This document shows, one piece after another, positions 3,316 to 33,752 of a stretch of 64,000 bases of DNA. Origin of the DNA: a virus (lineage: Duplodnaviria > Heunggongvirae > Uroviricota > Caudoviricetes); IMG/VR virus record IMGVR_UViG_3300046355_000236; one strand, 5' to 3'. Made by a program: the position numbers and the translations under genes. The notes beneath the pieces were generated by a model that was not told the DNA's origin, did no database searches, and saw nothing but the letters and a program-made list of their open reading frames with translations. The number at the start of each line of letters is the position of its first letter. Position 1 is the first letter of the stretch.

Positions 3316-3317
3316 TT

Positions 3318-4360: not shown

Positions 4361-4366
4361 AGGAAA

Positions 4367-5390: not shown

Positions 5391-5391
5391 T

Positions 5392-8269: not shown

Positions 8270-8270
8270 C

Positions 8271-8699
8271 ATGGCTATCGTCAGACAAACAGCACAAGAC
8301 ACACTACAAAGTAAACAACCTGAGTTGTTTTCAGACTTCTTAACAGACTTTGACTCTCATCCAGTTAAAAAAGATTTGGTAAAATACACGAACGAAAACG
8401 CCGTCAAACAATCCATAAAGAGTTTAGTGCTCACCAATCGAGGTGAGCGCTTCTTTAACTACTCTTTGGGATGTGATGTGCGCACAATGCTTTTCGAGCA
8501 GTTAACGCCAGCAACAGAGCTTGTTGTGGCAGACCTGATCAAAACGACAATTGAAAATTATGAACCCAGAGCAAGGGTGATTGACGTCGCAGCTAGTGGG
8601 GATTACGACACAGGGACAGTTTTTGTCACTATTGTTTTCTCAATCATAAATAAACAAGAACCTATAACTCTCGAACTAATTCTCGATAGGATCAGATAA
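8271..8699 (+). CDS. gp25: Baseplate wedge subunit / sheath initiator
   Basis: NENAVKQSI..LVLT..GERFF, IENYEPRA motifs. Confidence 0.9.
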   Translation: MAIVRQTAQDTLQSKQPELFSDFLTDFDSHPVKKDLVKYTNENAVKQSIKSLVLTNRGERFFNYSLGCDVRTMLFEQLTPATELVVADLIKTTIENYEPRARVIDVAASGDYDTGTVFVTIVFSIINKQEPITLELILDRIR

Positions 8700-13102: not shown

Positions 13103-13112
13103 AACGAAACAA

Positions 13113-14894: not shown

Positions 14895-17800
14895 ATGCCA
14901 TTAGAAAACACACTTAGCGCTAGCCCATATTTTGACGATTATGATCAGGCTAAAGAATTTTATAAAGTTCTTTTTAAACCTGGCGTTGCGTTACAAACGC
15001 GCGAGTTGAATCAGCTACAAAGCATTCTGCAAAACCAGATCGAGCGATTTGGTAACCATGTATTCAAGTCTGGCACCATTATCAGTGGTGTCAACTTTTC
15101 ATACATCCCAACATACACATACGTCAAGATTCTTGACACAGAGACTAGCGGCACACCGTCTCTTCCATCTTCATATGTTGACTACTTCGTCAAGAGTGAT
15201 CTAAACCTGACTGCTCGTATCGTCAATTATGAAGATGGTTTGGAATCAAAATCTCCTGATTTGAAGACATTGTATCTTCAATATACTAACAGCTCACAAC
15301 CTGACACTGCTAATGGTAATGCGATCTATACTACATTTAGACCTGATCAGTTGTTGACTGTTTATAGCAAAGACAACAACCTATTCAGCGTCACTGTTAA
15401 TAACGGTGGTCTGGGCTTTTCTAACGCAGATGCTGTTGTAGTAACGAGTGCGATCACCATTACTGGCAACACTATTGCGTTTGCAAATGGTGAGACTATT
15501 ACACAGTCTACTACCGGTGCAAAAGCTGTTATTGCTTCCGTCAATACAACCGCAATTGCAAACACAACAATTTTGAAAATTAAGCCACGCACGGCTGATT
15601 TGACTAACACATCGGTAAGTGCTAATGCGTGGACAATGTCGACTGGTTACAACGTTGTCGGTGGAACTAGTGGTGCAACAGCAAACGTTGTGTCGCTGAT
15701 TGGTAGTGGCGCAGTTGGTCTGGTTTCTACAGATACACAGGGTATTGTTCAGACACTTACACTAGCTGATGGTGGTGCTGGTTATGACTTCCTTCCTCAC
15801 GTTACCCTAAAAACAGCTAACTCGACAGCAACTGTTAATAACCTTGACTTGCAACCAAGCAACTTCAAGGCTCTGATCACTGTTGCTAATACCAGCACAA
15901 ACGCCATCGGAACTGGATATGCATTTGGTGTGTCCGAAGGTATCATCTACCAAAAAGGTTACTTCCTTAAAGTAGAACCACAAGTTATCACAGTTGATAA
16001 GTTTACAACTGCACCAGATAGCGTTGCTGTTGGTTTTAAGACTGTTGAAACCATTGTTGATGCTTATACAGATGAGTCTCTGTATGATAACGCTGCTAAC
16101 ACAACCAATTATACAGCTCCTGGTGCTGATCGTCTAACGCTTACTCCTGTTCTTACGTTGATGACGACAGCAGAAGCTCAGGCTAACGTAGACTTCTTTG
16201 CATTGGCTGAATGGAAAGAAGGGTTCCCATATAAGGAAAACCGTGTTTCTGTATACTCTAACCTTGCTGATGAACTAGCGCGCCGTACACGTGAGGCACA
16301 AGGTAACTTTGTTGTTGATTCATTCCAGGTTGGTACGAAAGAAAAGGCAACGCCAAACACATCAACTGTACAGACAGTTATTGACCCTGGTCTGGCATAC
16401 ATCTCTGGTTACCGTGTTCAGACATCGTACAACAACTACCTTGATGTTGATCGCTCCACAACGAAGACTTCGTTGAGCAACCAAAGTATTACTGTTAACT
16501 ACGGTAACTACGTCAAGGTCAAAGAACTAGCTGGCTTGTTTAACTTCAAAGCTGGTGATACAGTCAGTCTTTATGATACAGCAAAACAATATGTGTCAGC
16601 ATCTACTATTAGTACAAACGGATCAATTGCACCTGCAGGTACCCAAATTGGTACTGCCCGCATTCGTTCACTAGTTATTGATTCTGGCAGCCCAGGCACA
16701 CCAGACTGTGTATACAGAATGTATTTGTTTGATGTTGTAATGACTCCTGGACACTCTTTCCGTCAAGCGAGAAGCATATTTTTCGATGGTACTGTTCAAG
16801 ACGGTATCGCTGATATTGCTCTTGAGTATGATGCTACAACATCAGCAAACCTAGCATTCTTGAATGATGTGAATAACGATCAGTTGATATTCAATATCGG
16901 TCAACCAGCGGTCGCTACACTAAGCGATCTTTCATATCAATATAGAACAGTATCCGATGCTACACTACAACTAACGTCTGGTGGCCAAGTTGTTATTGGT
17001 CCGTTGGGATCAGGCCTATCATTCCCATATAGTGATGGCACGCTTTCTTCAACACAGGAACGCGACTTCATCGTATTCCCAATTGCAAACACGCAAGCTG
17101 CAGCAAATATTGGTGGGTCATTAGCAGTCAATGCAAGCAACACTATCATTGTTGGAACAAGCACGACGTTTGCAAGTGATCTACGTGTTGGTGACCATGT
17201 TAAGTTACTTGCCGCTAACGGATCCAGCATTGTTAGACAGGTTTCTTCAATTGCAAATAACACATACCTGACGCTGACGTCTAACGCATCTGTTTCGTTT
17301 ACAGCAAACGCTGTAATATTCTATCCCGCTCTTTATCCGTTGGATATTGAAAACAGAAGCGACCGCACCATCACTGTTTCTGCTAGTAGCAAGACTGTTA
17401 CCATCAACATCAACAAAACGCTGGCCGGAACCGCTAACGTTATTGCTGTTTACAATATTAAGTCTACCGCAGCAACTCCTGTTACTAAAACAATCAAACG
17501 CGATATCTTTGTTAAGCTACACACAAGCAACAACGTGTCAAGCAACACCGGTCCTTGGGCACTTGGTCTTCCTGGTGCCGCTCGATTGAAGAAGGTGTTT
17601 TTGGGTACAGATGCTGCTGTTAACACATCGAGCACAGATGTAACAAAATACTTCTATGTAGATTCTGGTGATGATGAAAACGCATACCGCACTTCTCGTT
17701 TGGTATTGAACACTGGTGCAAATCTTGCTGTTAATACCAACCAGTATATCATGGCTCAGCTTGATGTATTTACAAATAACGGTCAAGAAGGTTTCTTTAC

Positions 17801-20086: not shown

Positions 20087-22123
20087 ATGCTAGGGTTTGA
20101 TTTAGCACAGACATTTTATCTGGACAAAGACGCTGTCCAAGGAGCCGATCAGGCTTTCTTGACAGCCGTCGATCTTTACTTCTACCGAAAGCCTGTAGCC
20201 GGAAAAACAAAATCCGGTATCAGAGGCCCAGGTGCATCGGTGTATCTGTGCCCCGTTTTGGAGAACGGTACACCAGATCTTAACTTAGTGCATCACACGT
20301 TTGGTGCTCGTGTAGAATATGCAGATATTGCTACGAGCACGAGTGGAACAGAGGCTACAACGTTTACGTTTCGTCAACCTATTCCAGTACCAACAGCACG
20401 TAGTTATGGTATTTTAATTAAGTTTGATGGTAGTGACTCAGACTTCCAATTGTGGTACAACAAGTCAGGTGATAACGTACTTGGAACAACTACACAAACA
20501 CAGGTATCGTCTGGTAAAGTTGATGGTTTCTTTTACAAGATTACTAACGGTAAAGAACTGACTCCAGAACGTGATGCTGATCTTTCGTTCCGCTTGAAAG
20601 TTGCTAAATTTTTATCAACATCATCAACGTTCAAGATTAAAAACCGTCCTTACGAGATCTTGAAACTCAATGCTAACACCAGTTCGTTCAAAGGTGGTGA
20701 AGACATTTACCAACAACGCGCAAACGCTGCTGGTACTGTCAGCATTACTACCACTGGCGTGTCTGTTGTCGGTACTGGAACAGCGTTCAACTCAACATTG
20801 CTTCAAGGTGATAAAGTTATCTTGACGGATGGTACTGCTGGTAACACAGACGTACGTACAGTTGTTTCGGTTGCAAATGCAACTTACATGACGGTAGACG
20901 TTGAACCATCATTTACTGCTGCCTCTGGTACATATTACAAGACAGTTGTTGGTAAAGTTTTCCAGTCTGATGGCATCACCGACTACCTTGTGATTCAAGA
21001 TGCTAATTCGAACAGTAGTTTGTACCTTACAACAGGTACGACCATTACAGGTGTTGACTCGCTAGCTTCTGCAAACATTGTTTCTATTTACGATTATGCT
21101 ATCAACAGCATCGTCCCTGGATTTAACGTCAAAGCACCGTCAGGAACATCTGTATCCACTACAGTCAACTTTGCTAATGCTGATTACCAATTTACTTCTT
21201 CAACAGTTGCTAGTGTTGATTTGGGCCGTCGTAGAATGTTGAATGAATATGCAGCTGTTCTGGCATCGAGCACTAACGAACAAACTGCAGCAACACCTGT
21301 TCGCTCTTTTAACGGTACGTTGACTCTTACGACAAGCAATCCTTACGTTTCACCATACGTTCGTCAAGAAAACTTGGACTTGTTTGCAGAGCGTTATGAA
21401 ATTAACAACGATGCTACAGATGAGTACAAAGGCAATGGTAATGCAAAGGCCCGCTACATCTCAAAAACTATTGCTCTTGCAGAAGATCAAAAAGCAGAAG
21501 ATTTGAAAGTGTTTGTGCGAGCATATAAACCTGCCAACACATCTATCCTTGTTTATGCAAAGCTGCGTAACTCGGAAGATACAGAATCTTTTGATGTCAA
21601 AGATTGGACCGAGCTGACTGTTAACAACAATGTAACGATCGTCAGCAACCCAGCCAACATCTTTGATAGAATTGAGCTAGCATATGATGTACCGTTCACT
21701 ACGACGAGTACTCTTGTTGATGGTCAGTTCACTACAACATCTGCATGCACCGTCATCACAGGTACGTCCGGTACAGTTAACACATCGATCCAAGTAGGGG
21801 ATGTTGTTCGTGTGTCGTATCCTGCCTCAACAACGACGTACTTCACTGATACAGTTGTTGCTGCTAACTCGACAACCATCACTATTGCAAACCCTGTTTC
21901 CAACTCTAGCTTGATTGGTCCAGGTTATTTGGTGAATGTCGTGGATCGTCCAAATAGTGGATACCTGGACATTCAACAACAAAACGTATTAACATATTAC
22001 AACCGCGCACTGTCTAAATTCCAGACATTCGATTCGTTCGCCATTAAGATTGTTCTTCTGTCTGAGGATGGCGTAAAGATTCCTTATGTGGATGATGTGC
22101 GTGCAATTGCTGTTTCTGCATGA
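20087..22123 (+). CDS. DUF4815-like structural protein, C-terminal segment
   Basis: LAQTFY...FLTAVDLYF..KP, ARYISK.I.L...AEDLKVF.RAYKP, FAIKIVL motifs. Confidence 0.6.
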   Translation: MLGFDLAQTFYLDKDAVQGADQAFLTAVDLYFYRKPVAGKTKSGIRGPGASVYLCPVLENGTPDLNLVHHTFGARVEYADIATSTSGTEATTFTFRQPIPVPTARSYGILIKFDGSDSDFQLWYNKSGDNVLGTTTQTQVSSGKVDGFFYKITNGKELTPERDADLSFRLKVAKFLSTSSTFKIKNRPYEILKLNANTSSFKGGEDIYQQRANAAGTVSITTTGVSVVGTGTAFNSTLLQGDKVILTDGTAGNTDVRTVVSVANATYMTVDVEPSFTAASGTYYKTVVGKVFQSDGITDYLVIQDANSNSSLYLTTGTTITGVDSLASANIVSIYDYAINSIVPGFNVKAPSGTSVSTTVNFANADYQFTSSTVASVDLGRRRMLNEYAAVLASSTNEQTAATPVRSFNGTLTLTTSNPYVSPYVRQENLDLFAERYEINNDATDEYKGNGNAKARYISKTIALAEDQKAEDLKVFVRAYKPANTSILVYAKLRNSEDTESFDVKDWTELTVNNNVTIVSNPANIFDRIELAYDVPFTTTSTLVDGQFTTTSACTVITGTSGTVNTSIQVGDVVRVSYPASTTTYFTDTVVAANSTTITIANPVSNSSLIGPGYLVNVVDRPNSGYLDIQQQNVLTYYNRALSKFQTFDSFAIKIVLLSEDGVKIPYVDDVRAIAVSA

Positions 22124-22341
22124 CGCCACTACAAAAAACTGAAGATGCGCGGTTTGCTCGTGATAAGCATAGTACAGCTATCCTAAATATAGACAAAGCT
22201 GGCTACCAACAATTTAAGATGGAACGTGACCGCGCACTACAACTGCAACACGCTGTAGAGCAGGTTAGTGTTTTGCAGAGTGAGATGAGGGATATTAAAC
22301 AGCTGCTTCAACAATTAGTAAACGGAAAAACAAATGGCTAG
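22120..22341 (+). CDS. Small conserved hypothetical protein (coiled-coil C-terminus)
   Basis: 73 aa, translationally coupled (ATGA overlap); RD..S.AILN.D...Y motif seen in T4-like virion modules. Confidence 0.6.
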   Translation: MTPLQKTEDARFARDKHSTAILNIDKAGYQQFKMERDRALQLQHAVEQVSVLQSEMRDIKQLLQQLVNGKTNG

Positions 22342-23644
22342 AAGTATAGCAAACGTAGTAATCGCGACAGATTCATTCGCTTCATGGGTGGGTATCACCA
22401 ACCAGATGGCGGATACCTTTACCAATTATGCGCTGACGGCAAACTCATCTGTAACAGGAGCTACTGTAACAGGTAACTCACAGCTGATTGGTATCTTCGC
22501 GGCCAATACGGTTGCTGTTGGTACTGCTCTTCGCGGAGGATCTGTTAACGTATCATCCAATCTGAATGTTACATCCAATCTGATCGTTACAGGAGCAACG
22601 GTAAACATTGCAAGTAACGTAGCAATCGTTGGCACCAACACATATATCAACGCAGTTACCACATATGTTAACGGCGGCCTTGCAAACGTTACCTCGAATG
22701 TAAGTATTGTCAACACAAACACCTCAATCAACGCAGCTGTGACCTATGTTGCAGGTGGACTTGCAAACGTTACATCTAATGTCAGCATTGTTAACACAAA
22801 TACATCAATTAGTTCAGCAGTAACATACGTTGCTGGCGGTCTTGCAAACGTTACGTCTAACGTTTCGGTCCAAAACGCAAACACATATATCAACGCGACA
22901 GCGTTTGGTGTTGCGGGCGTGTCTACCCTAACAGGTACAACAACGCTGAAAGCTAACACAACGCTAACTAACGTTGTCTTATCTTCAAATGCAACTGTTA
23001 GCAACCTTCAAATCAGTGTAAACGCCCTAAACATTGTAGCTACAGCAAATATTAATGGTAGTCTGAGCGTATCATCGTTAAACTCTGTAGGTAACGCTGT
23101 TGTTAACGGTGCATTTACTGTCAACAACACAGCTGCTGTAGGTAATACGACAATTACAGGATTTGCCAACGTATCCACAACATTACAGGTTGATGGCAAT
23201 ACTACGCTGAATGCAACGTTAATTGCAAATAATATTGTAGCCAACGGCACCACAACCCTTTCAAATACAAACTTGAATGGTGTAACATTACTTGCTAATA
23301 ACGTCGTGTTGTCTGTTGTTGCTAATACGAACATTGGAAACGCTAATACCCTTGGAGCCTTTACAGCTGTAGAGGTTGCCAGCTTTCCTATTGCATCCTA
23401 CACAGGGGCAAAGATCACATCAAAAGTATCATCATTGAGTGGTGCTAGCAACCAAGTGCAGGAATTGCTAATTGCGCAAAACACAACAGATGTTTACATG
23501 ACCGTGTATGGTACTGTTGCTGCACCAGCAACAGCAAACCTTGGTGTATTCACAGCATCTATAAATACTACAGCTATATCAATCAAGTTCTTGCAAACGA
23601 GCGCCAATTCGAGCGTTAAGATGTTTGCGCAATACATCAAATAA
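22334..23644 (+). CDS. Tail fibre-like beta-rich protein with three 27-aa repeats
   Basis: N-terminal I...D.F..W...TN; rich in N/T/S/V/A; no Trp or Cys in the shaft. Confidence 0.65.
   Translation: MARSIANVVIATDSFASWVGITNQMADTFTNYALTANSSVTGATVTGNSQLIGIFAANTVAVGTALRGGSVNVSSNLNVTSNLIVTGATVNIASNVAIVGTNTYINAVTTYVNGGLANVTSNVSIVNTNTSINAAVTYVAGGLANVTSNVSIVNTNTSISSAVTYVAGGLANVTSNVSVQNANTYINATAFGVAGVSTLTGTTTLKANTTLTNVVLSSNATVSNLQISVNALNIVATANINGSLSVSSLNSVGNAVVNGAFTVNNTAAVGNTTITGFANVSTTLQVDGNTTLNATLIANNIVANGTTTLSNTNLNGVTLLANNVVLSVVANTNIGNANTLGAFTAVEVASFPIASYTGAKITSKVSSLSGASNQVQELLIAQNTTDVYMTVYGTVAAPATANLGVFTASINTTAISIKFLQTSANSSVKMFAQYIK
22664..22906 (+). repeat. 3 x 81-nt coding repeat (YV.GGLANVTSNVS.VN.NT.I..AVT)
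   Basis: Copies start at 22664, 22745 and 22826. Confidence 0.9.
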
Positions 23645-23652: not shown

Positions 23653-24627
23653 ATGGCTGCAGGCAATACACAGTTTAAAGCGGAGAATGGACTCTTTGTA
23701 CAGGGGACTGCTAACGTTGCTGGAGATTTGAAGGTCGATGGCAACCTTCTTGTCACAGGTAACATTGTGTCTTCAGGTACCGCTGCTGGTGACTTCATTC
23801 CTTTAAACAATACATACTCACTTGGAAATACCACATCCCGATGGTCTTTGTTGGGTGTAGATGGCAATTTCTCCGGCAACCTAACTGTAAGCACAGTTAC
23901 TACTCTCAGCGATACTGCATCATCCAACCTTATTCCAACAGTAAACAACGCACCTTTAGGATCAGCAACACGTCGTTGGGCGATTACTGCTAATACAGGT
24001 GACTTTCTAAACATTACGACGACACAGGCAATTGCTACTGTTAACCTAACATCAAACGGTACATTGTCTGCAGGTGTGTTGGTTGCAAATGCTACTCATG
24101 TCGTTATAACAAACGGAACACTGAGTGTAAATACTGGTTCGAAGACATCGATCTCTGCAACTGGCAACTCCACTTATAGTAGCCTTTCCCTTAATAACGA
24201 TGTAACATCTATCGGCGGCAATGTTGCTTTTGATACAGATCTTGTTGTTATCGATGCGGTCAACAACCGTATTGGTTTAAAAGCAACGACACTATCCTCT
24301 AGTGCTCTTGCTACAATCACTGGTAACGTTGAATTCAGCACTGCAAACACAGGTATTCGTTTACAGACATCAAACGCAACGCATAATGCATCCATTGTTA
24401 TGGTTGCGGCCAACACCAGTAACAGTCGCTTGACATTCTCAACATATGATACATCTAATTCTACAGTAGAGAACGGTGGTTTCGTATTTGGTGGTATGGT
24501 GAATAGCACATCAACACAGACGTTGTTATCATTTAGTAACGCTTCTATCAAATATAAAACTGGTAACGTCGCTCACGCAGGCAACTTCGGGATTTACGAT
24601 GTAAACGGCACACGCTTAGGACCATAA
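23653..24627 (+). CDS. Tail fibre-like protein
   Basis: F...NGL, G...P..N..Y.LG....RW fibre motifs; N/T/S-rich. Confidence 0.6.
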   Translation: MAAGNTQFKAENGLFVQGTANVAGDLKVDGNLLVTGNIVSSGTAAGDFIPLNNTYSLGNTTSRWSLLGVDGNFSGNLTVSTVTTLSDTASSNLIPTVNNAPLGSATRRWAITANTGDFLNITTTQAIATVNLTSNGTLSAGVLVANATHVVITNGTLSVNTGSKTSISATGNSTYSSLSLNNDVTSIGGNVAFDTDLVVIDAVNNRIGLKATTLSSSALATITGNVEFSTANTGIRLQTSNATHNASIVMVAANTSNSRLTFSTYDTSNSTVENGGFVFGGMVNSTSTQTLLSFSNASIKYKTGNVAHAGNFGIYDVNGTRLGP

Positions 24628-24628
24628 A

Positions 24629-26128
24629 ATGGCAAGACCACTGCGCGCGGTATACGCGAACACCACATACAGTAACGGTGTGCGGGAGATGTCTGATAGC
24701 GAACTTAATGATCTCGTCGCTCCTCTGATACTAACTTATGTAACATCGAACCCTAGTGTTGCGTATAGTACATCGCTGCGTATCAATACAGCAGGATTAT
24801 ACGATGTCAATGTAGGGGTTACAAACGATACTCGCAGCGATATTGTCGGTGCACACCCAGCATCAAACTCTACCATAAGCACATACACTTTATATCAGAG
24901 TGCGCGACCAATGGCTTTGAGCCTGAGTGCTCGCCCTGTTGCATATGTTCAGGTCGGTGATGAGTGGCAAATCAAATCGATGTCTGATCAAGAAATGATT
25001 GATCAGGTTGTGCCTTCTATTGTTCAGACCATGATCACTGGTGGCCAAGGTGCTTATTATATTGGACCAACATCAAGTGGAGCTCCTGTAGGGGGAACGT
25101 GGACGTCGTATGGAAATATGACCGACACATATTATGTTAACAGCACACTAACAACAGAACAGTATACGTTATGGCAGCGTACGTCTGGAACAACTGCTGG
25201 TACTATTAGACCTCTTAAAGTTGATTTGTCTGGCAACCTAGTCGAAATGACTAACGCTGATATAACCCAGCTGTACCAGGCTGTCGGTGAGTATATTCGT
25301 ACAACGGGCATTGGTCAATACGTCATCCAACCAATTGCGCCGTCTACAGGTACATGGATGCAGCGTGGATACTTTACAAATACGGTAAACAACTTACAAG
25401 ACACCGCTTATAACGGTTCATACATTGGGTCGTTTACGAGTCCATATACACGTGCGTTTACAGGCACGTATAATAGTGCATTCACAGGAAATTACACTGG
25501 TGCATATTCGCGTATTTTTACAGGCGCATATGCTGGTGGGTATAATAACACGTTTACAGGGTTATACAACCAGGCATTTACTGGTGCGTTCAGTGGTGGA
25601 TATGTAGGTACGTTCTCTGGAATTTATTCAAAGCTGTTCACAGGCGCGTATACAGGAGTGTATGCGGGTGCGTATAATGGCTTTTTCACTGGGACGTATA
25701 TTACTAATATTTCTAAATCGTACCAGAACCCATTCTCTGGTGTGTGGTATACTGGTTCTTACGCCAATTATTATAGTGGTAGTTATGCAAGCGCGTTTAC
25801 AGGTTTGTATACTGGTGCATACTCAGGATCATACCAAGGCAATTTCACTGGCGTATACAATACAACATTTACCGGCGTGTATAACCGATCGTTTACAGGA
25901 TCATTCACAGGAATATACACAGGAACTTTTAGTGGTTTATACACTGGTGGATACACCAGTGCATTTACAGGAATATATGCTGGAGCATATACAGGTGCAT
26001 TTAGCGGCGCATATAGCGGAGCGTTTACTGGACTATATAACACTTCATTCACCGGAGCCTACACTGGTTTGACTGTACTAAATACAACATCGACCACAGT
26101 ATACAAACTGTGGGTTAGAACAGCCTAA
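24629..26128 (+). CDS. Virion fibre-like protein A: three-module base plus ~218-aa x-G-x-[YF] tract
   Basis: Three internal RP[LV]...MS[DN].[ED]...GTW...G...[DN]T...LWQR modules; tetrapeptide tract at aa 261-478. Confidence 0.7.
   Translation: MARPLRAVYANTTYSNGVREMSDSELNDLVAPLILTYVTSNPSVAYSTSLRINTAGLYDVNVGVTNDTRSDIVGAHPASNSTISTYTLYQSARPMALSLSARPVAYVQVGDEWQIKSMSDQEMIDQVVPSIVQTMITGGQGAYYIGPTSSGAPVGGTWTSYGNMTDTYYVNSTLTTEQYTLWQRTSGTTAGTIRPLKVDLSGNLVEMTNADITQLYQAVGEYIRTTGIGQYVIQPIAPSTGTWMQRGYFTNTVNNLQDTAYNGSYIGSFTSPYTRAFTGTYNSAFTGNYTGAYSRIFTGAYAGGYNNTFTGLYNQAFTGAFSGGYVGTFSGIYSKLFTGAYTGVYAGAYNGFFTGTYITNISKSYQNPFSGVWYTGSYANYYSGSYASAFTGLYTGAYSGSYQGNFTGVYNTTFTGVYNRSFTGSFTGIYTGTFSGLYTGGYTSAFTGIYAGAYTGAFSGAYSGAFTGLYNTSFTGAYTGLTVLNTTSTTVYKLWVRTA
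25409..26062 (+). repeat. Tetrapeptide [TSANV]-G-x-[YF] coding repeat with central NPFSG turn
   Basis: Seen directly in the translation. Confidence 0.9.
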
Positions 26129-26147: not shown

Positions 26148-29100
26148 ATGCCAGTAAAACCATTAAAATACATTGAAATAAGCGGATCACCATCAACTCA
26201 GATTATGTCCAACACGGACATTACTGACTATGTGGCAAAATTAATAGGTACCGAATTTGCTAGCACCACAGGTGTTGGTTCCCTCGGTGTTGGTTCGCTG
26301 GCCAATGGAACATCTATTGGTACATGGGTGGACACGTACTATCCAAACGCAATCGGCGACCATCCCATTGACCCTGCTGCGGTCACAGTTTCAAACACAA
26401 CACTTTATCAAGACGTCTCTAACGGATCGTTGACGGGTATTTTTTCACGCCCTGTTGGTTGGGATACTTCAAACAACGTACCACAACTCTTATCCGATTC
26501 CGACATCGACACAAGCATCACGTCTGTTATTGCTAACTATGTTGTTAATGGTGGTGTTGGTTCATATGTCCTACAACCAACTGCTCCAGCAACAGGAACA
26601 TGGGTTTCACGTGGAACACTTACAAACACACAAGCACCTAGTGTAACCAACACGACTACGTTGTGGCAGAAGACAGCTGAATCTACAGGATCTGCTGTAC
26701 GTTTGTTGAAACTGGCAAACGGTGGCTTCCAGCAGTTTTCTGATGCTGATATTCGAAACCTGACGTTTAAACTCCGCAATTACATTGTTAATAGCGGCAT
26801 TGGCAAATATGTCCTTTCAACGACCACGCCAGTAACTCCTGGTACATGGGTGCAAGCAGGCACTGGTTTTGACGATATACGTCTATCACTTGAAGATGGA
26901 TTTTACGCTGGTGCATATAACAGTACGTTCACTGGCGGTTATACTGCTACATACTCTGGTAATTACAACAACACCTTCTCTAGTGCATTTACCAGCACAT
27001 ATTCATCTTCTTATTCAGGTGCATATAACTCGGCATTTAGCAGAGCCTACACAAGTGTGTATACAGGCGCCTTTACCGGACAATATAACCAAGCGTTCAC
27101 TGGTGCGTTCAGTAGAGCGTTTACCGGCGCCTTTACCGGACAATATAACCAAGCGTTTACTGGTAACTTTACTGGTGTATATGCTAACGCGTTCACGGGA
27201 CAGTACTCTGGTAATTATGTTGGCGCATTCAGTACAGTTTTTAGCGGTGCATATACTGGTGCATACAATCAGACATTTACCGGGTCGTACATTGGTACGT
27301 ACCTAAGCAACTATACAGGAGCTTTCAGTGGAGCCTATGCCTCTACGTTCACTGGAACTTTTACTGGCGCATACACAGCAGCTTACAGTGCTGTGTTCAC
27401 TGGTCAATACTCTGGTGGCTACACAAGTGCATTTACTGGTAGCTATACTTCAGCATATACGACTGCATACACGGGTGCCTACACAGGAGCATATTCGAAC
27501 GTATTTTCTGGTGCCTACACAGGCGGTTATACTACAACGTTTACTGGTCTGTATTCAGGCGCATATTCAAGAACGTTCACTGGCGCATATGCTGGCTCTT
27601 ATACGGGCGTTTTTAATCAGACATTCACTGGTTCGTACCTAGGTGGTTATGTAGGATCATTTACCGGCGCATATGCTGGTGCTTACTCACGTGTGTTTTC
27701 AGGATCCTACACTGGCATATATTCTGGTGGATATACTGGTGCGTTTTCTGGATCATATACTGGTATCTACACTGCTGCATATACAGGTTTATATTCAGGT
27801 GGGTACACAGGAGCGTTTACTGGGATCTACACTGGTGCATATACTGGTGCATTCAATCAAAGCTTTAGTGGTTTGTATTCCGGTTCATATACAAGTGCGT
27901 TTACTGGTCTGTATTCCGGTACATACACAAGTGCATTCTCAGGATCATATACGGGCGCGTATACAGGCGCATATAGCCAAGTGTTCACTGGTTCATATTC
28001 TGGTGGATATGTTGGCACATTTACAGGCGCGTATGCTGGTGCGTATTCACGTGTATTCACAGGATCGTACACTGGTGCATATACAGGAACATACAACCAA
28101 ACGTTTACTGGATCATATTCTGGTGGGTACGTAGGATCATTTACTGGTGCTTATGCCGGCGCTTATTCGCGTGTGTTTACTGGATCATACACAGGTGCAT
28201 ACACGGGCATTTATAACCAAACCTTTACTGGATCTTATTCTGGTGGGTACGTAGGATCATTTACTGGTGCTTATGCTGGTGCTTATTCTCGCGTTTTCAC
28301 TGGATCGTATTCTGGTATCTACACCGGCGTATATAATCAGACGTTTACTGGATCATATTCTGGTGGGTATGTTGGTTCATTTACTGGTGCTTATGCTGGC
28401 GCTTATTCACGAGTATTCACTGGCTCTTACACAGGCGCATACACAGGCGTATACAATCAGACATTTACTGGATCGTATTCTGGTGGATACACTCGAGCGT
28501 TTACTGGCGCATATGTTGGTGCTTACTCGCGTGTGTTCTCAGGATCATATACTGGCCTCTACACAGGATTATATACTGGCATATACACTGGACTATATTC
28601 TGGTGGATATGTAGGATCATTTACAGGTCTATACTCCGGCACATATTCAAGAATATTCTCTGGATCTTACACAGGTTTATACTCTGGTGTGTATCAGAAT
28701 ACATTTACTGGCTTGTACTCTGGTGTGTATCAAAGCACATTTACAGGTGCATACTCTGGTAACTACACTCGTGCATTTACTGGTAGTTATGCTGGTAACT
28801 ATATTGCATCATATGCTGGTGCATATGCTGGTACGTACAATACAGGTTATATTGGTTATTATGCACCCGGCGGTGCTGTGTACTACACTGGTTTATATAC
28901 TGGCTTTTATTCTGCATATTATGCTGGTAACTATATAAACCCTTTTAATGGAGCTACGTATACTGGTGGCTATTTGGGATCACGAGCTCGTAGTTTTGCT
29001 GGTGGATATACAGCTGGCGCTGGTTATGCTGGAACATACACAGGTTTCTATGCTGCTGGCTATCTCGGGTCCTATCTTGGATACTATGGTGGCTCACGTG

Positions 29101-31259
29101 CCCGAGCATATAGAAACCCATATAATGCTGTATGGTACACGGGTTACTATGCTGCTGGTTACGCTGGTTGGTATTCTGGCTATTATGCTGGCTCACGTGC
29201 ACGTAGTTATACTGGATACTACGCTGGATCGCGCGCGCTTACATTTACAAGAGCGTTTACTGGTAGCTACACTGGATACTACAACAGAACATTTACTGGT
29301 GCTTATAGCGGCGCCTATAACGGTGCATTCACGGGAATTTATTCTGGTGGATATATTGGATCCTTTACTGGCGCATATTCCGGTGGCTACATTGGCTCAT
29401 TTACAGGGGCATATGCCGGTGCGTATGCTGGCAGCTACCAAGGAAACTTTACGGGTGCGTACTCTGGCGCATACAATAACACCTTCACTGGCATTTACTC
29501 TGGTGGATATGCAGGAGCGTACGCTGGTGCATACGCTGGCGCGTATGTTGGAAACTACACTGGATCGTTTAGCGGTATATACAGTGGTGCATACAACCAA
29601 ACGTTCACAGGAGCATATTCAGGTGGTTATGTAGGTGCGTTCACTGGTGTTTGGGCGGGTGCATATGCTGGTAATTACTCCGGATCATTCAGTGGATTGT
29701 ATAGTGGAGCATACAACCAAACATTTACAGGGGCATATTCTGGTGGATATGTAGGCGCATTTACCGGTGCCTGGGCTGGTGCTTATGCGGGCAATTACTC
29801 CGGATCATTTAGCGGTCTATACTCTGGTGCGTATAACAACACCTTCACCGGTGCATACTCAGGTGGATACGTTGGTGCGTTTACCGGTGTTTGGGCAGGG
29901 GCATATGCAGGTAATTACTCTGGATCATTCAGCGGCCTGTTTTCAGGTGCATACAACCAAACATTCACTGGAGCTTATTCAGGTGGATACGTAGGTGCAT
30001 TTACCGGAGTTTGGGCAGGAGCATATGCAGGTAATTACTCCGGTTCGTTTAGTGGTTTATACAGCGGAGCATATAACCAAACGTTTACTGGTGCATATGC
30101 TGGTGGTTATGTTGGTACATTCTCCGGTATTTACTCTGGCAACTTCGTTGGATCGTATTCGAATTCGTTCACTGGCGCTTTTGCTGGAGCATACAATCAA
30201 GCGTTCACTGGCGCTTTCGCTGGTAACTACACAGGCGTATTCTCAGGAATATATTCTGGTGGGTACTCTGGATCATACAACCAGGTATTCTCTGGTGCAT
30301 ATTCTGGTACCTACAATACAGGATACTCTGGCGCATATGTTGGAAATTACAACAGCGTTTTCACTGGCGCTTTTGCTGGCGCATATGTAGGCAACTACTC
30401 AGGTTCCTTTACCGGATTGTACAGCGGAGCATACACTCAAACATTTACAGGTGCATATGCAGGTGGATACACTGGTGCATTCACAGGGGTTTGGACTGGA
30501 TTCTACTCTGGCGGTTATGTTGGAACGTTTACTGGTGCATATGCTGGTGGTTATAATTCCACATTCTCCGGCATATATGTCGGTGGTTATGCTAACACGT
30601 TCTCTGGTGTTTATAGCGGATCTTACAACACAACCTACACTGCAGTATATTCAGGTGCATATAACCAAACATTCTCTGGTGCATACTCTGGTGGTTATAC
30701 TGGATCGTTTAGTACAGCATACACTGGTGGATATTCATCAGGGTTTACTGGTGCGTTTACTGGCCTATACAACCAAACGTTCACCGGTAACTTCTCTGGT
30801 GCATATGCAGGTGGATACACCGGCACATTCTCTGGCGCATATGTCGGTGGGTATGGCAACACATTCTCTCGCACATTTACAGGAATATACACCGGCGTGT
30901 ATAGTAACGTATTTACAGGCGTTTATAACCAAGCATTCACTAGCCAATTTACCGGTGTATACAATCAAGCATTTACTGGTGCGTTTAGTAGTGCATTTAC
31001 AGGTCAGTTCACTGGTCAATATGCGCAACAATTTACAAGCGTATACACTGCTGCATACACAGGCGCGTTTACAGGATCATATACATCAGCATATACTGGC
31101 CAGTATACTCAAATGTTTACAGGAACATTTACCGGCGTTTATTCCGCAACTTACACCGGTCTATATACAAGAGCATATGTAGGAACATACACAGGACTGA
31201 CAATTGTTTCTACACCACAAACAGTTGCGACACTTAAACTTTGGGTACGGACATCATGA
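26148..31259 (+). CDS. Virion fibre-like protein B (1703 aa): paralog of A with ~1430-aa x-G-x-[YF] tract
   Basis: Same modular N-terminus (KPL...MS..DI, G.HP, GTW) and C-terminus (TGLT.V...LKLWVRT) as protein A. Confidence 0.75.
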   Translation: MPVKPLKYIEISGSPSTQIMSNTDITDYVAKLIGTEFASTTGVGSLGVGSLANGTSIGTWVDTYYPNAIGDHPIDPAAVTVSNTTLYQDVSNGSLTGIFSRPVGWDTSNNVPQLLSDSDIDTSITSVIANYVVNGGVGSYVLQPTAPATGTWVSRGTLTNTQAPSVTNTTTLWQKTAESTGSAVRLLKLANGGFQQFSDADIRNLTFKLRNYIVNSGIGKYVLSTTTPVTPGTWVQAGTGFDDIRLSLEDGFYAGAYNSTFTGGYTATYSGNYNNTFSSAFTSTYSSSYSGAYNSAFSRAYTSVYTGAFTGQYNQAFTGAFSRAFTGAFTGQYNQAFTGNFTGVYANAFTGQYSGNYVGAFSTVFSGAYTGAYNQTFTGSYIGTYLSNYTGAFSGAYASTFTGTFTGAYTAAYSAVFTGQYSGGYTSAFTGSYTSAYTTAYTGAYTGAYSNVFSGAYTGGYTTTFTGLYSGAYSRTFTGAYAGSYTGVFNQTFTGSYLGGYVGSFTGAYAGAYSRVFSGSYTGIYSGGYTGAFSGSYTGIYTAAYTGLYSGGYTGAFTGIYTGAYTGAFNQSFSGLYSGSYTSAFTGLYSGTYTSAFSGSYTGAYTGAYSQVFTGSYSGGYVGTFTGAYAGAYSRVFTGSYTGAYTGTYNQTFTGSYSGGYVGSFTGAYAGAYSRVFTGSYTGAYTGIYNQTFTGSYSGGYVGSFTGAYAGAYSRVFTGSYSGIYTGVYNQTFTGSYSGGYVGSFTGAYAGAYSRVFTGSYTGAYTGVYNQTFTGSYSGGYTRAFTGAYVGAYSRVFSGSYTGLYTGLYTGIYTGLYSGGYVGSFTGLYSGTYSRIFSGSYTGLYSGVYQNTFTGLYSGVYQSTFTGAYSGNYTRAFTGSYAGNYIASYAGAYAGTYNTGYIGYYAPGGAVYYTGLYTGFYSAYYAGNYINPFNGATYTGGYLGSRARSFAGGYTAGAGYAGTYTGFYAAGYLGSYLGYYGGSRARAYRNPYNAVWYTGYYAAGYAGWYSGYYAGSRARSYTGYYAGSRALTFTRAFTGSYTGYYNRTFTGAYSGAYNGAFTGIYSGGYIGSFTGAYSGGYIGSFTGAYAGAYAGSYQGNFTGAYSGAYNNTFTGIYSGGYAGAYAGAYAGAYVGNYTGSFSGIYSGAYNQTFTGAYSGGYVGAFTGVWAGAYAGNYSGSFSGLYSGAYNQTFTGAYSGGYVGAFTGAWAGAYAGNYSGSFSGLYSGAYNNTFTGAYSGGYVGAFTGVWAGAYAGNYSGSFSGLFSGAYNQTFTGAYSGGYVGAFTGVWAGAYAGNYSGSFSGLYSGAYNQTFTGAYAGGYVGTFSGIYSGNFVGSYSNSFTGAFAGAYNQAFTGAFAGNYTGVFSGIYSGGYSGSYNQVFSGAYSGTYNTGYSGAYVGNYNSVFTGAFAGAYVGNYSGSFTGLYSGAYTQTFTGAYAGGYTGAFTGVWTGFYSGGYVGTFTGAYAGGYNSTFSGIYVGGYANTFSGVYSGSYNTTYTAVYSGAYNQTFSGAYSGGYTGSFSTAYTGGYSSGFTGAFTGLYNQTFTGNFSGAYAGGYTGTFSGAYVGGYGNTFSRTFTGIYTGVYSNVFTGVYNQAFTSQFTGVYNQAFTGAFSSAFTGQFTGQYAQQFTSVYTAAYTGAFTGSYTSAYTGQYTQMFTGTFTGVYSATYTGLYTRAYVGTYTGLTIVSTPQTVATLKLWVRTS
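26904..31190 (+). repeat. Tetrapeptide coding repeat with higher-order 120-nt (40-aa) duplications in both halves
   Basis: N-arm units at 27639, 27999, 28119, 28239, 28359, 28479, 28599; C-arm units at 29475, 29595, 29715, 29835, 29955, 30075, 30435. Confidence 0.92.
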
Positions 31260-31696
31260 AGAGAACTATTAAAAATCCACACTGGACAAACAACGCACGT
31301 ACTGTCCTTTCTGCTGAATTCCATTATGAAGATGGGCGCGTGCTTACAGCTACGATCAGTGATTCAGATAAGGGCAATCCAGATCTGGTTGAAATTTTGG
31401 CGAACTTTACGGCTGAGGAGCTAGAAGCAAACACTGCTAGAGCTATCAAGCGCCAAAGTCAGGAAATGGAATCCAGACGCCGCCAAGAAGAAGCAATGGC
31501 AGAAAAAGCACTGCAAGAGGAACTGTTTGCAGTTAAACTAAAAGCTTTCGAGCTAGATGTTGTCAAAGGTACAACTAACCGTGCCTTGAAATCACAAATT
31601 CGCCGAGCAAAGAGTGTATTTGAGGTGTACGCATACACAGCAGCCTTGATTCTTGACAACCAACAAAACCCACCAACTGATTCGACTGCGGAGTAA
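31256..31696 (+). CDS. Putative fibre assembly chaperone
   Basis: MKRTIKNPHWTNNARTVLSAEF resembles tail-fibre-assembly N-termini; followed by a coiled coil; ATGA-coupled to fibre B. Confidence 0.45.
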   Translation: MKRTIKNPHWTNNARTVLSAEFHYEDGRVLTATISDSDKGNPDLVEILANFTAEELEANTARAIKRQSQEMESRRRQEEAMAEKALQEELFAVKLKAFELDVVKGTTNRALKSQIRRAKSVFEVYAYTAALILDNQQNPPTDSTAE

Positions 31697-31699
31697 ATA

Positions 31700-32410
31700 A
31701 TGGATATTGATAATGGATTTCTTCTCGTGGCATCGGTCACGGAAGATTATGTGAAGTCTGCAAATTATTCGGCTGATAGCATCCGCGATTATTATCCAGA
31801 TGCTCATATTACTTTATTCGTGCCGCCTGCACTTCGTCACTTGGCAGATGATTCTGCATTTGATTTGATTGTATCAGACCCAGATGTACCAAATCACACA
31901 CGGACAAAATTGTATGCTTTGTCTCGTACTCCATATAAGAATTTAACTGTATATGTGGATGCTGACATGGAATGCATGCACGAAGACGTTCAAAACATTT
32001 GGAACGAAATGCCCGACGACTGTGATATCTTGATCACCAAGATCAGACCATACAATGGTAAGATTTCAAAATGGGCAACAGGTGAAATGATCTACCATGG
32101 TGGTTTCTTCATGTACCGCACCAATCCAAAGACAATTGATTTTATGGATCGTTGGTGGGTGGACTACCATAAACAACGTGCAGAGCCATGGCCATATGAT
32201 GAAAGCGAGATTCCAGTCACACTAAGACCATGGGACCAGTTTACATTTTGGAAGCTGCTAAATATTGACAAACTAGATACAAATGTTCAAGTGTTTAAAG
32301 ACGATGCTCGATGGAACTTTGTTAACGGTTATCGCTTGAACGAAAACAAAGACCCAATCGTTTTCTACCACCACACTATTCCATCCAGACGCGAGGACAC
32401 TAAAAAATGA
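31700..32410 (+). CDS. GT-A-fold glycosyltransferase-like protein
   Basis: RTKLYAL..TPY...TVYVDAD (DxD), HGG.F.Y, W...W, WDQF, D.RWNF, HH motifs. Confidence 0.75.
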   Translation: MDIDNGFLLVASVTEDYVKSANYSADSIRDYYPDAHITLFVPPALRHLADDSAFDLIVSDPDVPNHTRTKLYALSRTPYKNLTVYVDADMECMHEDVQNIWNEMPDDCDILITKIRPYNGKISKWATGEMIYHGGFFMYRTNPKTIDFMDRWWVDYHKQRAEPWPYDESEIPVTLRPWDQFTFWKLLNIDKLDTNVQVFKDDARWNFVNGYRLNENKDPIVFYHHTIPSRREDTKK

Positions 32411-33027
32411 AATCAATTGATATTGTAAACCTAGAATTAAAAAACATCCTTGACGAGTTTATGGCTGTCCTGCAGAACTGCGATCGCTCGGAATATCCGT
32501 ATGGAAATTGGACAGATATTACTCCTGACTATGCATGTGGTATGGAATACCTAGAACATATGCAGGGTAAAAAGGTTGATGGCTTTCCGGAAAAAACACT
32601 AGGGGTTGATCTATCACGCTTTACTCCACCACAAGAGTCGTTGCGCAAAGCTCTTACCAAACTCGATCATGATTTGATTGCATGGTCCGGCTCTCGAAAC
32701 AATGCGGTCAAGATGTTGTATCCTAAGGGTGGTTACATGGGCTGGCACCACAATGCAAACGCAGCTGGTTACAATATTCTGTTGTCCTGGTCCAAAGATG
32801 GTAAAGGCTACTTCCGGTACCAGGATCCAATCACAAAGGAAATTGTTACAATGCAGGATACGCCTGGTTGGACATGCAAGGTTGGGTACTACGGACCATG
32901 GCATGAAAAAGACCGTATTTACTGGCACTGTGCTAATGCAGCACACGAAGAAAGATTCACGCTAGGCTACATTATTCCTCATGAAGGAATGTGGCAAGAT
33001 ATGTGTGACGATATTCAGAGCAAATAA
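32407..33027 (+). CDS. 2OG-Fe(II) oxygenase-like protein
   Basis: YPKGGYMGWHHN...YWHC......R.TLG double-stranded beta-helix signature (HxN...H triad, Arg for 2OG). Confidence 0.75.
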   Translation: MKSIDIVNLELKNILDEFMAVLQNCDRSEYPYGNWTDITPDYACGMEYLEHMQGKKVDGFPEKTLGVDLSRFTPPQESLRKALTKLDHDLIAWSGSRNNAVKMLYPKGGYMGWHHNANAAGYNILLSWSKDGKGYFRYQDPITKEIVTMQDTPGWTCKVGYYGPWHEKDRIYWHCANAAHEERFTLGYIIPHEGMWQDMCDDIQSK

Positions 33028-33752
33028 TAATCTGAATAAGACTGATAATCCCGTGGCGTTGTTGGACCATTCAACAGTACCACGGGAATTTTTTTGACTA
33101 TTTCAATAAACTTGCTTGGGCGGTATCCAAAATCAACTGGATCGTGTTGCTCATTCATATTGTGATCGACGCCGTACATATGTGAATAGAACTTCATCGC
33201 TGGAAAGTATTCTGTAGATGATCCTGCTGAGTGGTGTTCATAAAACATAAACGAATCCATTCCCCAATAGTACTTGGTCATAAACTTTTCAGGGTCTTTG
33301 ATAAAATGATCCCATATTGGTCTGGCTAGTGGCGACCTCCATGTCATACAGCTGCTGTTGAAAGGGTGGTGGTGCTCAATAGTATGGTATTGATGTTTTT
33401 TACGCCACACAGCATTGATAACTGTAAGAGCTCCACTGTTTGTATCAATGAGGTCGTCAATGTTTGATTTAATAACAAGGTCTAAATCGAAGTACATACG
33501 TGGACCATTGGGTAGTTGGCTATCAAACTGCTCACTGAACATGAACAGCTTGTTATACACAATTACATCGAGCCCGTGATCCACATAGTCAATACACGCT
33601 ATGTTTTTATCAACACCAGTCTTGTCGTCTGTGTAACAAAAGAAGTTGAACGGCCTACTGATATTCTTCTGACACATTCTAAATAGGTTGTTGACCATAG
33701 ATGTGTCATATTTACGGCCAAGTTTAACGCATATAATGTTTAGAGATTCCAT
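33015..33752 (-). CDS. GT-A-fold glycosyltransferase-like protein (inverted orientation)
   Basis: IICVK.G.KY....VN.L..M...N....F.F.C.TDD, KL.MF, YFDLD.VI (DxD), FNSS.M.W motifs. Confidence 0.8.
   Translation of the reverse strand: MESLNIICVKLGRKYDTSMVNNLFRMCQKNISRPFNFFCYTDDKTGVDKNIACIDYVDHGLDVIVYNKLFMFSEQFDSQLPNGPRMYFDLDLVIKSNIDDLIDTNSGALTVINAVWRKKHQYHTIEHHHPFNSSCMTWRSPLARPIWDHFIKDPEKFMTKYYWGMDSFMFYEHHSAGSSTEYFPAMKFYSHMYGVDHNMNEQHDPVDFGYRPSKFIEIVKKIPVVLLNGPTTPRDYQSYSDYYLL
33679..33685 (+). promoter_or_regulatory. Late promoter variant CTAAATA inside the inverted GT, facing the methyltransferase
   Basis: Motif match about 70 nt upstream of ATG 33754. Confidence 0.35.

Follow-up and report, generated by a model that had tools for sequence, protein, structure and literature searches.

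A giant mirror-symmetric protein of a freshwater T4-like phage as a probable out-and-back hairpin fibre of an undescribed family

The window analysed here is a stretch of 64,000 nucleotides of viral DNA (Caudoviricetes; IMG/VR record IMGVR_UViG_3300046355_000236), and its subject is one giant gene, a single intact open reading frame (ORF) of 1703 amino acids (aa), together with the protein family to which it belongs. The source of the window is a T4-like myovirus, in which ORFs at 8700-14885 match the baseplate wedge families gp6, gp7 and gp8. Its closest cultured relatives, at 34-40% protein identity, are the Sinorhizobium phages phiM7/M12, the Caulobacter phage Cr30 and the Pelagibacter phage HTVC008M. 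At the DNA level, the baseplate region has zero matches among 50,697 phage records, and the phage is known only from metagenomes; the public runs that contain the locus all carry the label freshwater metagenome. The giant belongs to a group of fibre-like genes that follows the baseplate genes, and the synteny of this fibre region is found again in three other contigs (L001, L007 and L008). With a probability of about 0.72, we read the giant as the virion fibre of an undescribed family in T4-like phages of which almost all knowledge comes from metagenomes, built of a three-module base and of a shaft that would be an out-and-back, in-register hairpin over its full length. The gene, its parts and its upstream neighbour are as follows.

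26148..31259, plus strand: giant, putative hairpin-fibre protein ('fibre B', P0001), single intact ORF, 1703 aa.
26148..26432, plus strand: base module 1, aa 1-95; hhalign against module 2 gives a probability of 98.5% and E 1.5e-15.
26433..26693, plus strand: base module 2, aa 96-182; a complete module that has a closing hairpin of its own, GTW...(21 aa)...LWQK.
26694..26903, plus strand: N-terminal part of base module 3, aa 183-252; ends at the outgoing strand GTWVQAG; hhalign against module 2 gives E 3.3e-24.
26904..28862, plus strand: N arm, aa 253-905, 164 x-G-x-[Y/F] tetrads with zero indels.
27975..28694, plus strand: N-arm array of 40-aa units, aa 610-849; core 610-790 at 90-97% aa identity; outlying copy at aa 490-529.
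28863..29243, plus strand: irregular centre, presumed distal tip, aa 906-1032; five 8-residue turn-type spacings, YY doublets, GSRAR motifs and two NP[FY].
29244..31190, plus strand: C arm, aa 1033-1681, 163 tetrads with zero indels, in the same phase as the N arm.
29475..30194, plus strand: C-arm array of 40-aa units, aa 1110-1349; core 1130-1310 at 93-100% aa identity; outlying copy at aa 1430-1469.
31191..31256, plus strand: last 22 aa (TGLTIVSTPQTVATLKLWVRTS), the strand that comes back to complete module 3 and that matches, in the alignment, the last strand of modules 1 and 2.
24629..26128, plus strand: adjacent paralogue ('fibre A', P0006, 499 aa); same base (~255 aa), a 218-aa tract, arms of 25 + 27 tetrads, C-terminal ...YKLWVRTA.

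The base carries three internally repeated sequence modules of ~85 aa in tandem, a repetition confirmed by hhalign at E 1.5e-15 to 5.6e-26. In both paralogues of the window the modules follow the pattern RP[LV]...(E/Q)MSDS(D/E)I...G.G.Y.L...P..GTW...G..(D/N)T...(T)LW.(K/R)T. The last two elements of this pattern are consecutive in modules 1 and 2, and in module 3 they are separated by the whole aromatic tract. A MAFFT alignment of the three modules of both paralogues places the final 20 aa of the protein on the closing strand of modules 1 and 2. When module 2 is compared by hhalign with a composite of the N-terminal part of module 3 and the C-terminal 22 aa, the alignment runs over 76 columns spanning the junction, with a probability of 99.7% and E 5.6e-26; leaving the C-terminal piece out lowers the score from 125 to 111. 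In 107 homologues, the two Trp of GTW and LWxR are ~21 aa apart in module 2 (interquartile range 21-23) and 65-1465 aa apart in module 3 (median 217). The tract is thus inserted inside the hairpin of a repeated base module, which means that its two ends must meet.

The conservation of the protein follows the same layout. Both ends are kept, the extreme C-terminus most of all, with L, W and R of the C-terminal strand at least 90% conserved across 107-113 homologues, and the middle is hypervariable. This bears directly on a conventional parallel fibre, that is, one with N-terminal attachment, a parallel homotrimeric shaft and a C-terminal tip, in which the mirror layout would be a coincidence. 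Such an arrangement is the default of all characterised T4-type fibres, and the gene does lie in a fibre-gene region. It is nevertheless very improbable here, since the C-terminal strand, a homologue of the strand that closes the base modules, is predicted to be docked there, conservation peaks at the extreme C-terminus and variability in the middle of the chain, and the equal arms and mirrored breaks described below are left unexplained by it.

As for its fold, the base found nothing at E<=0.001 in Foldseek searches of the PDB and BFVD. An exhaustive VIA-align comparison gave four beta-prism domains as the best matches, at middling Z scores of 7.1-5.6 over 114-121 residues with a root-mean-square deviation of 3.9-5.5 A, and the predicted base is likely to be a single-chain, pseudo-trimeric, beta-prism-like fold. 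Module 2 alone matched T4 gp11 and a KP1 baseplate chain in VIA at Z 2.1-2.3; these matches are too weak and were not used.

Between the two parts of the base, residues 253-1681 form an x-G-x-[Y/F] tract. A first, sequence-only reading of the window had described it, and it is borne out, with an aromatic residue at every fourth position and no gap within either arm. Counted by the four residue phases, aromatics number 347, 6, 7 and 27 and glycines 12, 14, 258 and 44, the glycine-rich phase standing two residues from the aromatic one; glycine occupies position 2 in 71-77% of the tetrads of both arms. The tract is composed of G 21%, Y 17%, T 14%, A 12%, S 12% and F 8%, and Asp, Glu, Lys, His and Cys are all absent from it. 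Written in rows of ten tetrads, it displays a 40-aa super-period, and Tandem Repeats Finder (TRF) reports a period of 120 at 27931-28628 and 29562-30132. The unit motif starts at aa 498, 618, 658, 698, 738, 778 and 818 in the N arm and at aa 1110, 1150, 1190, 1230, 1270, 1310 and 1430 in the C arm. The spacings first given, 360 and then five times 120 nucleotides in the N arm and five times 120 and then 360 in the C arm, are therefore exact. The Gln-rich outer ends that the two arms had been said to share are also found, windows at 310 and 1602 being each other's best match at 70% identity. The units of the two arms, on the other hand, had been called different, and they are homologous, run in the same direction and have 60-70% aa identity (NQTF-TG[SA]Y-SGGY-VG[SA]F-...). 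Highly similar units amount to only ~4.5 per arm (aa 610-790 and 1130-1310), and the flanking 'units' are 53-88% identical. The irregular tip, put at ~905-1030, is correctly located and extends slightly wider, over ~905-1033/1045. With these corrections on unit types and centre width, the first observation of tract, spacings and ORF holds as a whole.

Within each array the units are 93-100% identical as protein and only 77-86% identical as DNA, and about half of the identical-residue codons between units are synonymous variants; units 1150 and 1270, for example, have 100% protein and 83% DNA identity. Near-identical unit proteins on diverged DNA indicate that the duplications are old and that the unit sequence is under purifying selection, and the contrast between the two identities argues against slippage noise and misassembly. 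The gene could still be suspected of being an artefact, either a short-read misassembly or a non-coding low-complexity region that is open by chance, because the short-read assemblies of other samples break within it and contain chimeric joints. Reads of four non-source freshwater runs did give short contigs only, the joints of which have short sides, as is typical for repeat-induced chimeras; they held zero indel or unit-number variants and are uninformative on paired variation. We find an artefact scarcely credible, however. The 14-23% DNA divergence between repeat units is mostly synonymous, with the protein kept; contigs from four other freshwater samples, at >=99% identity, tile most of the gene, including the tip and both arrays; the frame and the period-4 phase are uninterrupted across 4.3 kb; and full-length homologues exist, up to 1650 aa, as well as one of 3347 aa in a complete GenBank genome. 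A metagenome search for relatives of the giant itself found only proteins at 33% identity, with no close orthologue of full length among them. The syntenic IMG/VR contig L001, found through the paralogue, holds an orthologue of the giant that is cut by the contig end.

The centre of the tract has five 8-residue spacings, at 905-913, 942-950, 980-988, 1013-1021 and 1025-1033, with the letters APGGAVY, LGSRARS, GGSRARA, AGSRARS and AGSRALT; G-S-R-A-R thus occurs in three of the five. As five is an odd number of turns, a net reversal of the chain would still result. The simple homologues have in common one turn motif, Y[IT][LR]Y[YF]-[GS]G.x.G[TSY]-Y[TD]G[YT]Y, and the paralogue, which adjoins the giant upstream, has a tract with one irregular centre. 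The two NP[FY] motifs in the giant's centre resemble one at the tip of the paralogue. The irregular centre is thus not random. The tip of the giant may be a small beta-meander 'head' and not a single turn, or its centre may be a set of alternative turn sites.

The closure of the hairpin was examined by structure prediction. For the paralogue, AlphaFold2 (AF2) with a 113-sequence alignment (A1) gave residues 1-265 a predicted local distance difference test score (pLDDT) of 91-98, and placed the C-terminal 20 residues, at 97-98, in the base. In this model every module ends in a beta-hairpin, and that of module 3 (243-266 and 473-497, with 24-residue strands) is twice the length of the others. 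Single-sequence AF2 of the same protein returned both arms as beta at pLDDT 60-73, with a poor base. For the giant, a split-chain complex was predicted from residues 1-285 (alignment A2) and 1650-1703 (alignment A3), with three controls. The interaction prediction score from aligned errors (ipSAE) was 0.96 against 0.00 for the best control, the partner had a pLDDT of 66-84, and three runs had at least 96% of their contacts in common. The mark set for ipSAE is reached by 58 of 80 solved complexes and by 2 of 110 mismatched pairs, a calibration that is rough here since our own alignments were used. No similar complex has been solved, so that the pass does not reproduce a known structure.

The confident contacts in the complex join residues 232-281 with 1653-1703 in an antiparallel manner, with i+j at ~1934-1936 and a centre at ~967.5, and the tract midpoint, (253+1681)/2, is 967. 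The C-terminal piece contacts base residues 218-248, and the predicted antiparallel contacts reach into the first and last eight tetrads. The claim of the sequence-only reading that a single chain reverses at mid-length, with its arms antiparallel, is thereby supported for the topology and for the pairing near the base by insertion topology, AF2, the split-chain complex and the symmetry of homologues.

Further along the arms, the giant offers a mirror signal of its own. Compared with 2000 shuffles, its breaks lie nearer the centre and mirror each other better (p = 5e-4). If the register of the base (i+j ~1934.5) is carried along the arms, aa 610-790, which hold the N array, would face aa 1144-1324; the real C array stands at 1130-1310 and is displaced by ~14 aa over its length of 180. 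A chance of ~6% is estimated for such a placement alone. Between the arms, the gradients of Gly and Phe from base to tip have correlations of r = 0.70 and 0.76 in mirror order and of -0.49 and -0.52 in parallel order. Toward the base, both arms have less Gly and more Phe and Gln. This signal is limited to the Gly, Phe and Gln/Asn gradients, with none in seven other features, and lends the pairing weak support.

Comparative evidence for arm symmetry comes from the family. A phmmer search of residues 1-255 against 1.84 billion representatives found base homologues that form 345 clusters (50% identity), of which 232 have E<=1e-10. The matches listed range from short contig-end fragments up to proteins of 1650 aa, full-length members beginning at ~280 aa, and the C-terminal motif G.T[VI]...LW[VLI]R[TI]A is found in 111 of the 153 proteins examined (both window paralogues counted). 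The giant has the marks of the proposed family, namely the three-module base, a [YF]-period-4 insertion with equal arms, and the LWxR end. In each homologue, the aromatic path was traced through the insertion and its run lengths were recorded in tetrads, with the breaks in brackets. The commonest pattern is n tetrads, one 8-residue spacing and n-1 tetrads, as in 24/23, 14/13, 12/11, 10/9, 8/7, 6/5 and 5/4. Among 15 homologues with a single break, the tetrad counts of the two arms correlate at r = 0.98 (p = 1.6e-10), and 10 of these 15 are exactly n [8] n-1. Members with several breaks are palindromic:

P0055: 5[6]4[6]4[6]4[8]3[6]4[6]4[6]5.
P0026: 3[6]5[6]10[8]8[6]5[6]4.
P0048: 3[6]5[6]4[6]4[6]11[8]9[6]4[6]5[6]4[6]4.

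Shuffling gave p<0.05 for 9 of 39 proteins and a combined p of 5.6e-6. The +2 insertions sit at an equal level on both arms and leave the aromatics on the same strand face, and from their sequences such mirrored insertions appear to behave like compensatory change in paired strands. The expectation that arm lengths should agree across homologues has therefore stood up wherever the tip is definable, and the phase breaks are mirrored as well. Reversal of the chain at the distal end, of the kind found in the tip of T4 gp37, is likewise found computationally, in the palindromic breaks, the arm equality and the split-chain contacts.

Many members of the family, P0152, P0089, P0137, P0143 and P0048 among them, have a lattice that is interrupted every ~10-13 or ~22-26 residues by +1/+2 shifts. 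In the giant, if the predicted register holds, the ribbon would have the non-Gly tetrads (NQTF and SRVF in the N arm, NQTF in the C arm) at intervals of 12-16 residues. The regular breaks and the non-Gly tetrads may both reflect ribbon twist or a packing partner.

Only one GenBank phage record was found to hold the family, which is phage C48C1 (OQ984149, Kyanoviridae), where CDS0201 is a 'hypothetical protein' of 3347 aa. It was found by tblastn with the base of the paralogue (E 2e-4, 32% identity; 50,697 phage records), and the same search with the bases of the giant and of P0048 found nothing. The C48C1 protein resembles the giant in its three-module base, its period-4 [YF] tracts, its C-terminal ...ETYTLYVRVA strand and its position after baseplate and fibre genes. 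It differs in being twice as long and in having Arg-rich tracts (SR.F, TRxR) and several globular inserts. The C-terminal half of this member (L006 112-10155) alternates period-4 stretches of ~70-350 aa with at least five globular inserts, bead-like on the returning arm, and a ~75-aa segment is exactly duplicated (aa ~2010-2085 and 2085-2160). A literature search on C48C1 found no phage paper.

The same family patterns bear on a closed loop that is not extended, in which the ends of the tract meet and the tract itself folds compactly, as a beta-solenoid or meander with a period of 20-40 aa or as a cohesive or disordered Gly/Tyr mass. The strict 40-aa super-period of the giant, the 22-26-aa periods of some homologues, the low AF2 confidence over the tract when an alignment is used and the five turn motifs of the giant's centre would all suit such a fold, as would weak VIA matches of the low-confidence region to pentapeptide-repeat solenoids (Z 2-3; 2.1-2.8 for the pentapeptide-repeat proteins). 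A solenoid, however, needs translational symmetry, and the commonest pattern of the family is n tetrads, one turn and n-1 tetrads, with breaks that are palindromic around one centre. Moreover, the predicted antiparallel pairing extends from the base into the tract, and every +2 break keeps the aromatics on the same face, as for continuous paired strands. We consider a compact loop to be distinctly unlikely.

The number of chains in the shaft is more evenly disputed. In a trimer or dimer of hairpins, the chain would reverse in the same way, and the shaft would comprise two or three hairpins with their Gly/Tyr faces turned inward, making a four- or six-stranded rod like an elongated gp37 needle. 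The tract, devoid of acidic residues, Lys and His and with one face wholly of Gly and Tyr/Phe, suggests burial; known phage fibres are trimeric, the gp37 tip reportedly being a chain-reversing trimer; and the +1/+2 breaks of homologues every ~13-26 aa could be stutters that follow a supercoil. Set against this, the base is a single-chain pseudo-trimer with one extended hairpin, by which the usual reason for trimerisation is gone, and the His-x-His sites of the gp37 type are absent. A bundle of hairpins is accordingly a doubtful but serious contender. The shaft as a monomeric, two-stranded beta-ribbon, ~1 nm thick and up to ~215 nm long, with a continuous Tyr/Phe-over-Gly zipper, neither a hydrophobic core nor partner chains, and a length that evolves by paired indels or expansions, is put forward tentatively, as a reading with rather less than even odds. 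Since one chain already makes a pseudo-trimeric base, the balance tips mildly towards a monomer, and there is a substantial chance that the giant's shaft represents a new class of fibrous protein.

The hairpin-fibre reading can be set out as a working model. The three tandem ~85-aa modules would fold as a compact pseudo-threefold base with one beta-hairpin each, and the hairpin of module 3 would be hugely extended. The chain would exit the base at about residue 250, run outward for ~650 residues, reverse in the turn-rich tip at aa ~905-1033, run back for ~650 residues and re-enter the base as its last strand (LWVRTS). The arms would pair antiparallel and in register as a two-stranded beta-ribbon, one face of which would present alternating Gly (position 2) and Tyr/Phe (position 4) as an aromatic-over-glycine zipper, and the other, from positions 1 and 3, the small side chains of Thr/Ser and Ala/Ser/Thr/Val. 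At 3.3 A per residue, the giant would measure at most ~215 nm, which is an upper bound, and the paralogue, with ~109 residues per arm, ~36 nm. The base would presumably dock on the baseplate or tail, and attachment there is suggested by the gene neighbourhood and by the synteny in L001, L007 and L008. The host-facing distal end would then be the middle of the polypeptide, and the hypervariable tip a candidate for host contact. The length of the fibre would be set by the number of tetrads or 40-aa units in both arms, and would change only if the two changes are matched. In dilute freshwater, such a long, thin and flexible 'fishing line' could enlarge the radius within which hosts are captured, and the 499-aa paralogue would be its short version.

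How a paired expansion might come about is a matter of speculation. Each arm is a lattice of period 4 that is close to uniform, and an unmatched gain of 40 aa could be absorbed by sliding the turn by ~20 residues, with the base register kept, until the other arm gains a unit. Because every tetrad is a possible partner for every other and the turn is free to slide, intermediates whose arms differ in length may be tolerated, and the several central turn motifs of the giant would suit such a buffer.

What the computations demonstrate is that the tract is inserted in a hairpin, that its ends close, that its strands pair antiparallel next to the base, and that the family has equal arms with mirrored indels; from there we infer pairing along the whole of the ~650-residue arms. 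A number of points weigh against a full-length hairpin fibre. No confident model was obtained of any full-length hairpin, nor of the giant's arms past eight tetrads, and the paralogue's tract has a pLDDT below 50 in the alignment-based AF2 model, which is because the alignment is meaningless over the tract. The five turn-like motifs mean that the tip is no simple turn and that the exact register along the arms is uncertain, and the two arrays put the mirror centre at an estimated 960-980, where the register at the base gives 967.5. A solvent-exposed ribbon would not usually lack all of Asp, Glu, Lys and His, and the tract may be buried by oligomerisation, bundling or glycosylation. In the family, the homologues are related, and fewer independent events lie behind the arm-length correlation than it suggests; the middle of many members is large and irregular, and arm equality is unscorable there; and the C48C1 protein, with its globular inserts, has no simple two-arm symmetry, its arms being unscorable as equal. 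Finally, the giant's place on the virion, its expression and its function as a capture fibre are presumptions.

The genes that follow the giant, and those that precede the paralogue, place it in a wider setting. Directly downstream lie the following.

31256..33027, plus strand: three ORFs (146, 236 and 206 aa); by blastp 30-48% identical to the genes directly after the fibre gene in L007 and L008, which are unrelated contigs.
33015-33752, minus strand: 245-aa ORF; PHROG glycosyltransferase match at 1.3e-10; four paralogues in L007.

The 236-aa ORF is weakly glycosyltransferase-like, its Pfam matches to GT2 and nucleotide-sugar transferase being below threshold only. The position of the three ORFs suggests candidate assembly, chaperone or modification partners of the fibre, and together with the 245-aa glycosyltransferase-like ORF they look like a conserved assembly or modification cassette for the hairpin-fibre family. 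Near the fibre gene, L007 has Mtd_N-domain proteins (21194-21656) and L008 has six Laminin_G_3 proteins in a row (1-9363). These differing neighbours indicate that host-recognition modules vary widely around a conserved hairpin-fibre cassette.

Upstream of the paralogue, the ORFs at 22334-23644 and 23653-24627 (436 and 324 aa) belong to no PHROG or Pfam family and contain Asn/Thr/Val-rich quasi-repeats, with NVTSNVSIVNTNTSI occurring three times. Quasi-repeats of this sort are typical of beta-helical fibres, and the orthologues of both ORFs stand in the same order in L001. Still further upstream, at 14895-19634 and after gp8, is a 1579-aa DUF4815 protein with a Hint/intein-like segment at aa 1356-1393 (Pfam Hint and Hom_end_hint, sub-threshold). 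This protein and the next large ORF (20087-22123) match the N- and C-terminal parts of phrog_358, which suggests a split or autoprocessing structural protein.

To our knowledge, the phage fibres and tailspikes of known structure are all parallel homotrimers. This arrangement, with receptor binding at or near the C-terminus, is what host-range prediction, fibre engineering and annotation pipelines assume. The hairpin-fibre family, as read here, would break both assumptions, given its single-chain pseudo-trimeric base, its out-and-back shaft and a tip that is encoded in the middle of the gene. Its 345 clusters come from aquatic viral metagenomes and are all unannotated, so that a class of adsorption organelle of abundant, uncultivated T4-like phages would currently be invisible. 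Equal arms and mirrored two-residue indels would also make this a rare protein topology that can be read from comparative sequence alone. If true, the paired indels and expansions of the arms are a protein counterpart of the covariation of RNA helices. The tetrad ribbon would be a minimal, length-programmable rod, ranging from ~10 nm to ~200 nm in natural members, and of relevance to protein design and materials. The conserved downstream trio, one of which is glycosyltransferase-like, suggests a dedicated assembly or modification machinery.

The family was compared with known systems by several routes. Pfam gave only a sub-threshold Gly-zipper on the giant, PHROGs gave no family for the base or the paralogue, and a sequence profile search of the PDB gave only a chance low-complexity match to a metacaspase. 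The AlphaFold database (AFDB) clusters returned only uncharacterised members of the family itself, and the ESM Atlas only unnamed viral clusters. Literature searches on Tyr-rich, tetrapeptide-repeat and hairpin phage fibres found no description. The sequence-only reading had recognised no described family in this architecture, and that judgement is in keeping with Pfam, PHROGs, the PDB by sequence and fold, BFVD and AFDB names, all of which are without a match. The 'tentaclins' (PMC10743442) were considered as relatives and are unrelated, being C-type-lectin and Ig proteins. Fibres with a glycine period of 3, whether collagen-like or polyglycine-II adhesins of the gp38 type, are ruled out by a tract period that is strictly 4, and a beta-solenoid, such as that of pentapeptide repeats, does not agree with the single mirror centre of the giant and its homologues.

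The structural likeness of the base is to beta-prism domains, namely the MABP domain of MVB12B (3tow) and the C-terminal domains of Plu-MACPF (2qp2), Mp2Ba1 (8b6v) and perforin-2 P2 (6sb1), at Z 7.1, 6.5, 6.5 and 5.6, respectively. These domains and, as predicted, the base have in common pseudo-threefold hairpins or sheets made from three sequence repeats of a single chain. The base differs from them by an alpha-helix in each module and an identity of only 7-11%, and the matched domains are without an extended hairpin; no functional link is implied.

For the shaft, there are two partial parallels. Cross-strand pairing of aromatic residues with glycine has reportedly been described as an 'aromatic rescue of glycine', and tryptophan-zipper hairpins are two-stranded antiparallel ribbons stabilised by aromatics stacked on one face. 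Both fit the Gly(2)/Tyr-Phe(4) face of the tract, and both are local motifs of a few residues; literature searches found nothing comparable over ~160 consecutive tetrads per strand. SasG and Aap of Gram-positive bacteria are said to be single-layer beta-sheet rods, 'periscope' proteins of variable length. As the giant would be, they are long, thin, single-chain beta rods with no conventional hydrophobic core, whose length is given by the number of near-identical tandem repeats. In SasG and Aap, however, small domains are joined head to tail and the termini are at opposite ends, whereas the giant would have both termini at the base, and its lengthening would need two matched and distant changes.

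The fibres of T4 itself offer the nearest comparison. No sequence or profile similarity to T4-type fibres (gp34/gp36/gp37, gp12) was found, and in place of parallel chains with a distal C-terminus, the C-terminal strand is predicted to be docked in the base. The contrast with parallel T4 fibres that had been drawn from the sequence is thus supported, as this strand is homologous to, and predicted at the site of, the closing strand of module 3. The closest analogue is the tip of T4 gp37, which is reportedly a trimer of chain-reversing strands. In both proteins, the chain would run to the distal end and return, with antiparallel strands along the fibre axis and a tip that is not the C-terminus. 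The gp37 needle is short (~15 nm), an obligate trimer of six strands with His-coordinated iron, and it ends a long parallel trimeric shaft. Residues 253-1681 of the giant hold zero His and thus no His-x-His metal site, and there is no sequence or fold match to gp37. Its whole shaft, and not the tip only, would be a hairpin, raised on a single-chain three-module base and built of Gly/aromatic tetrads.

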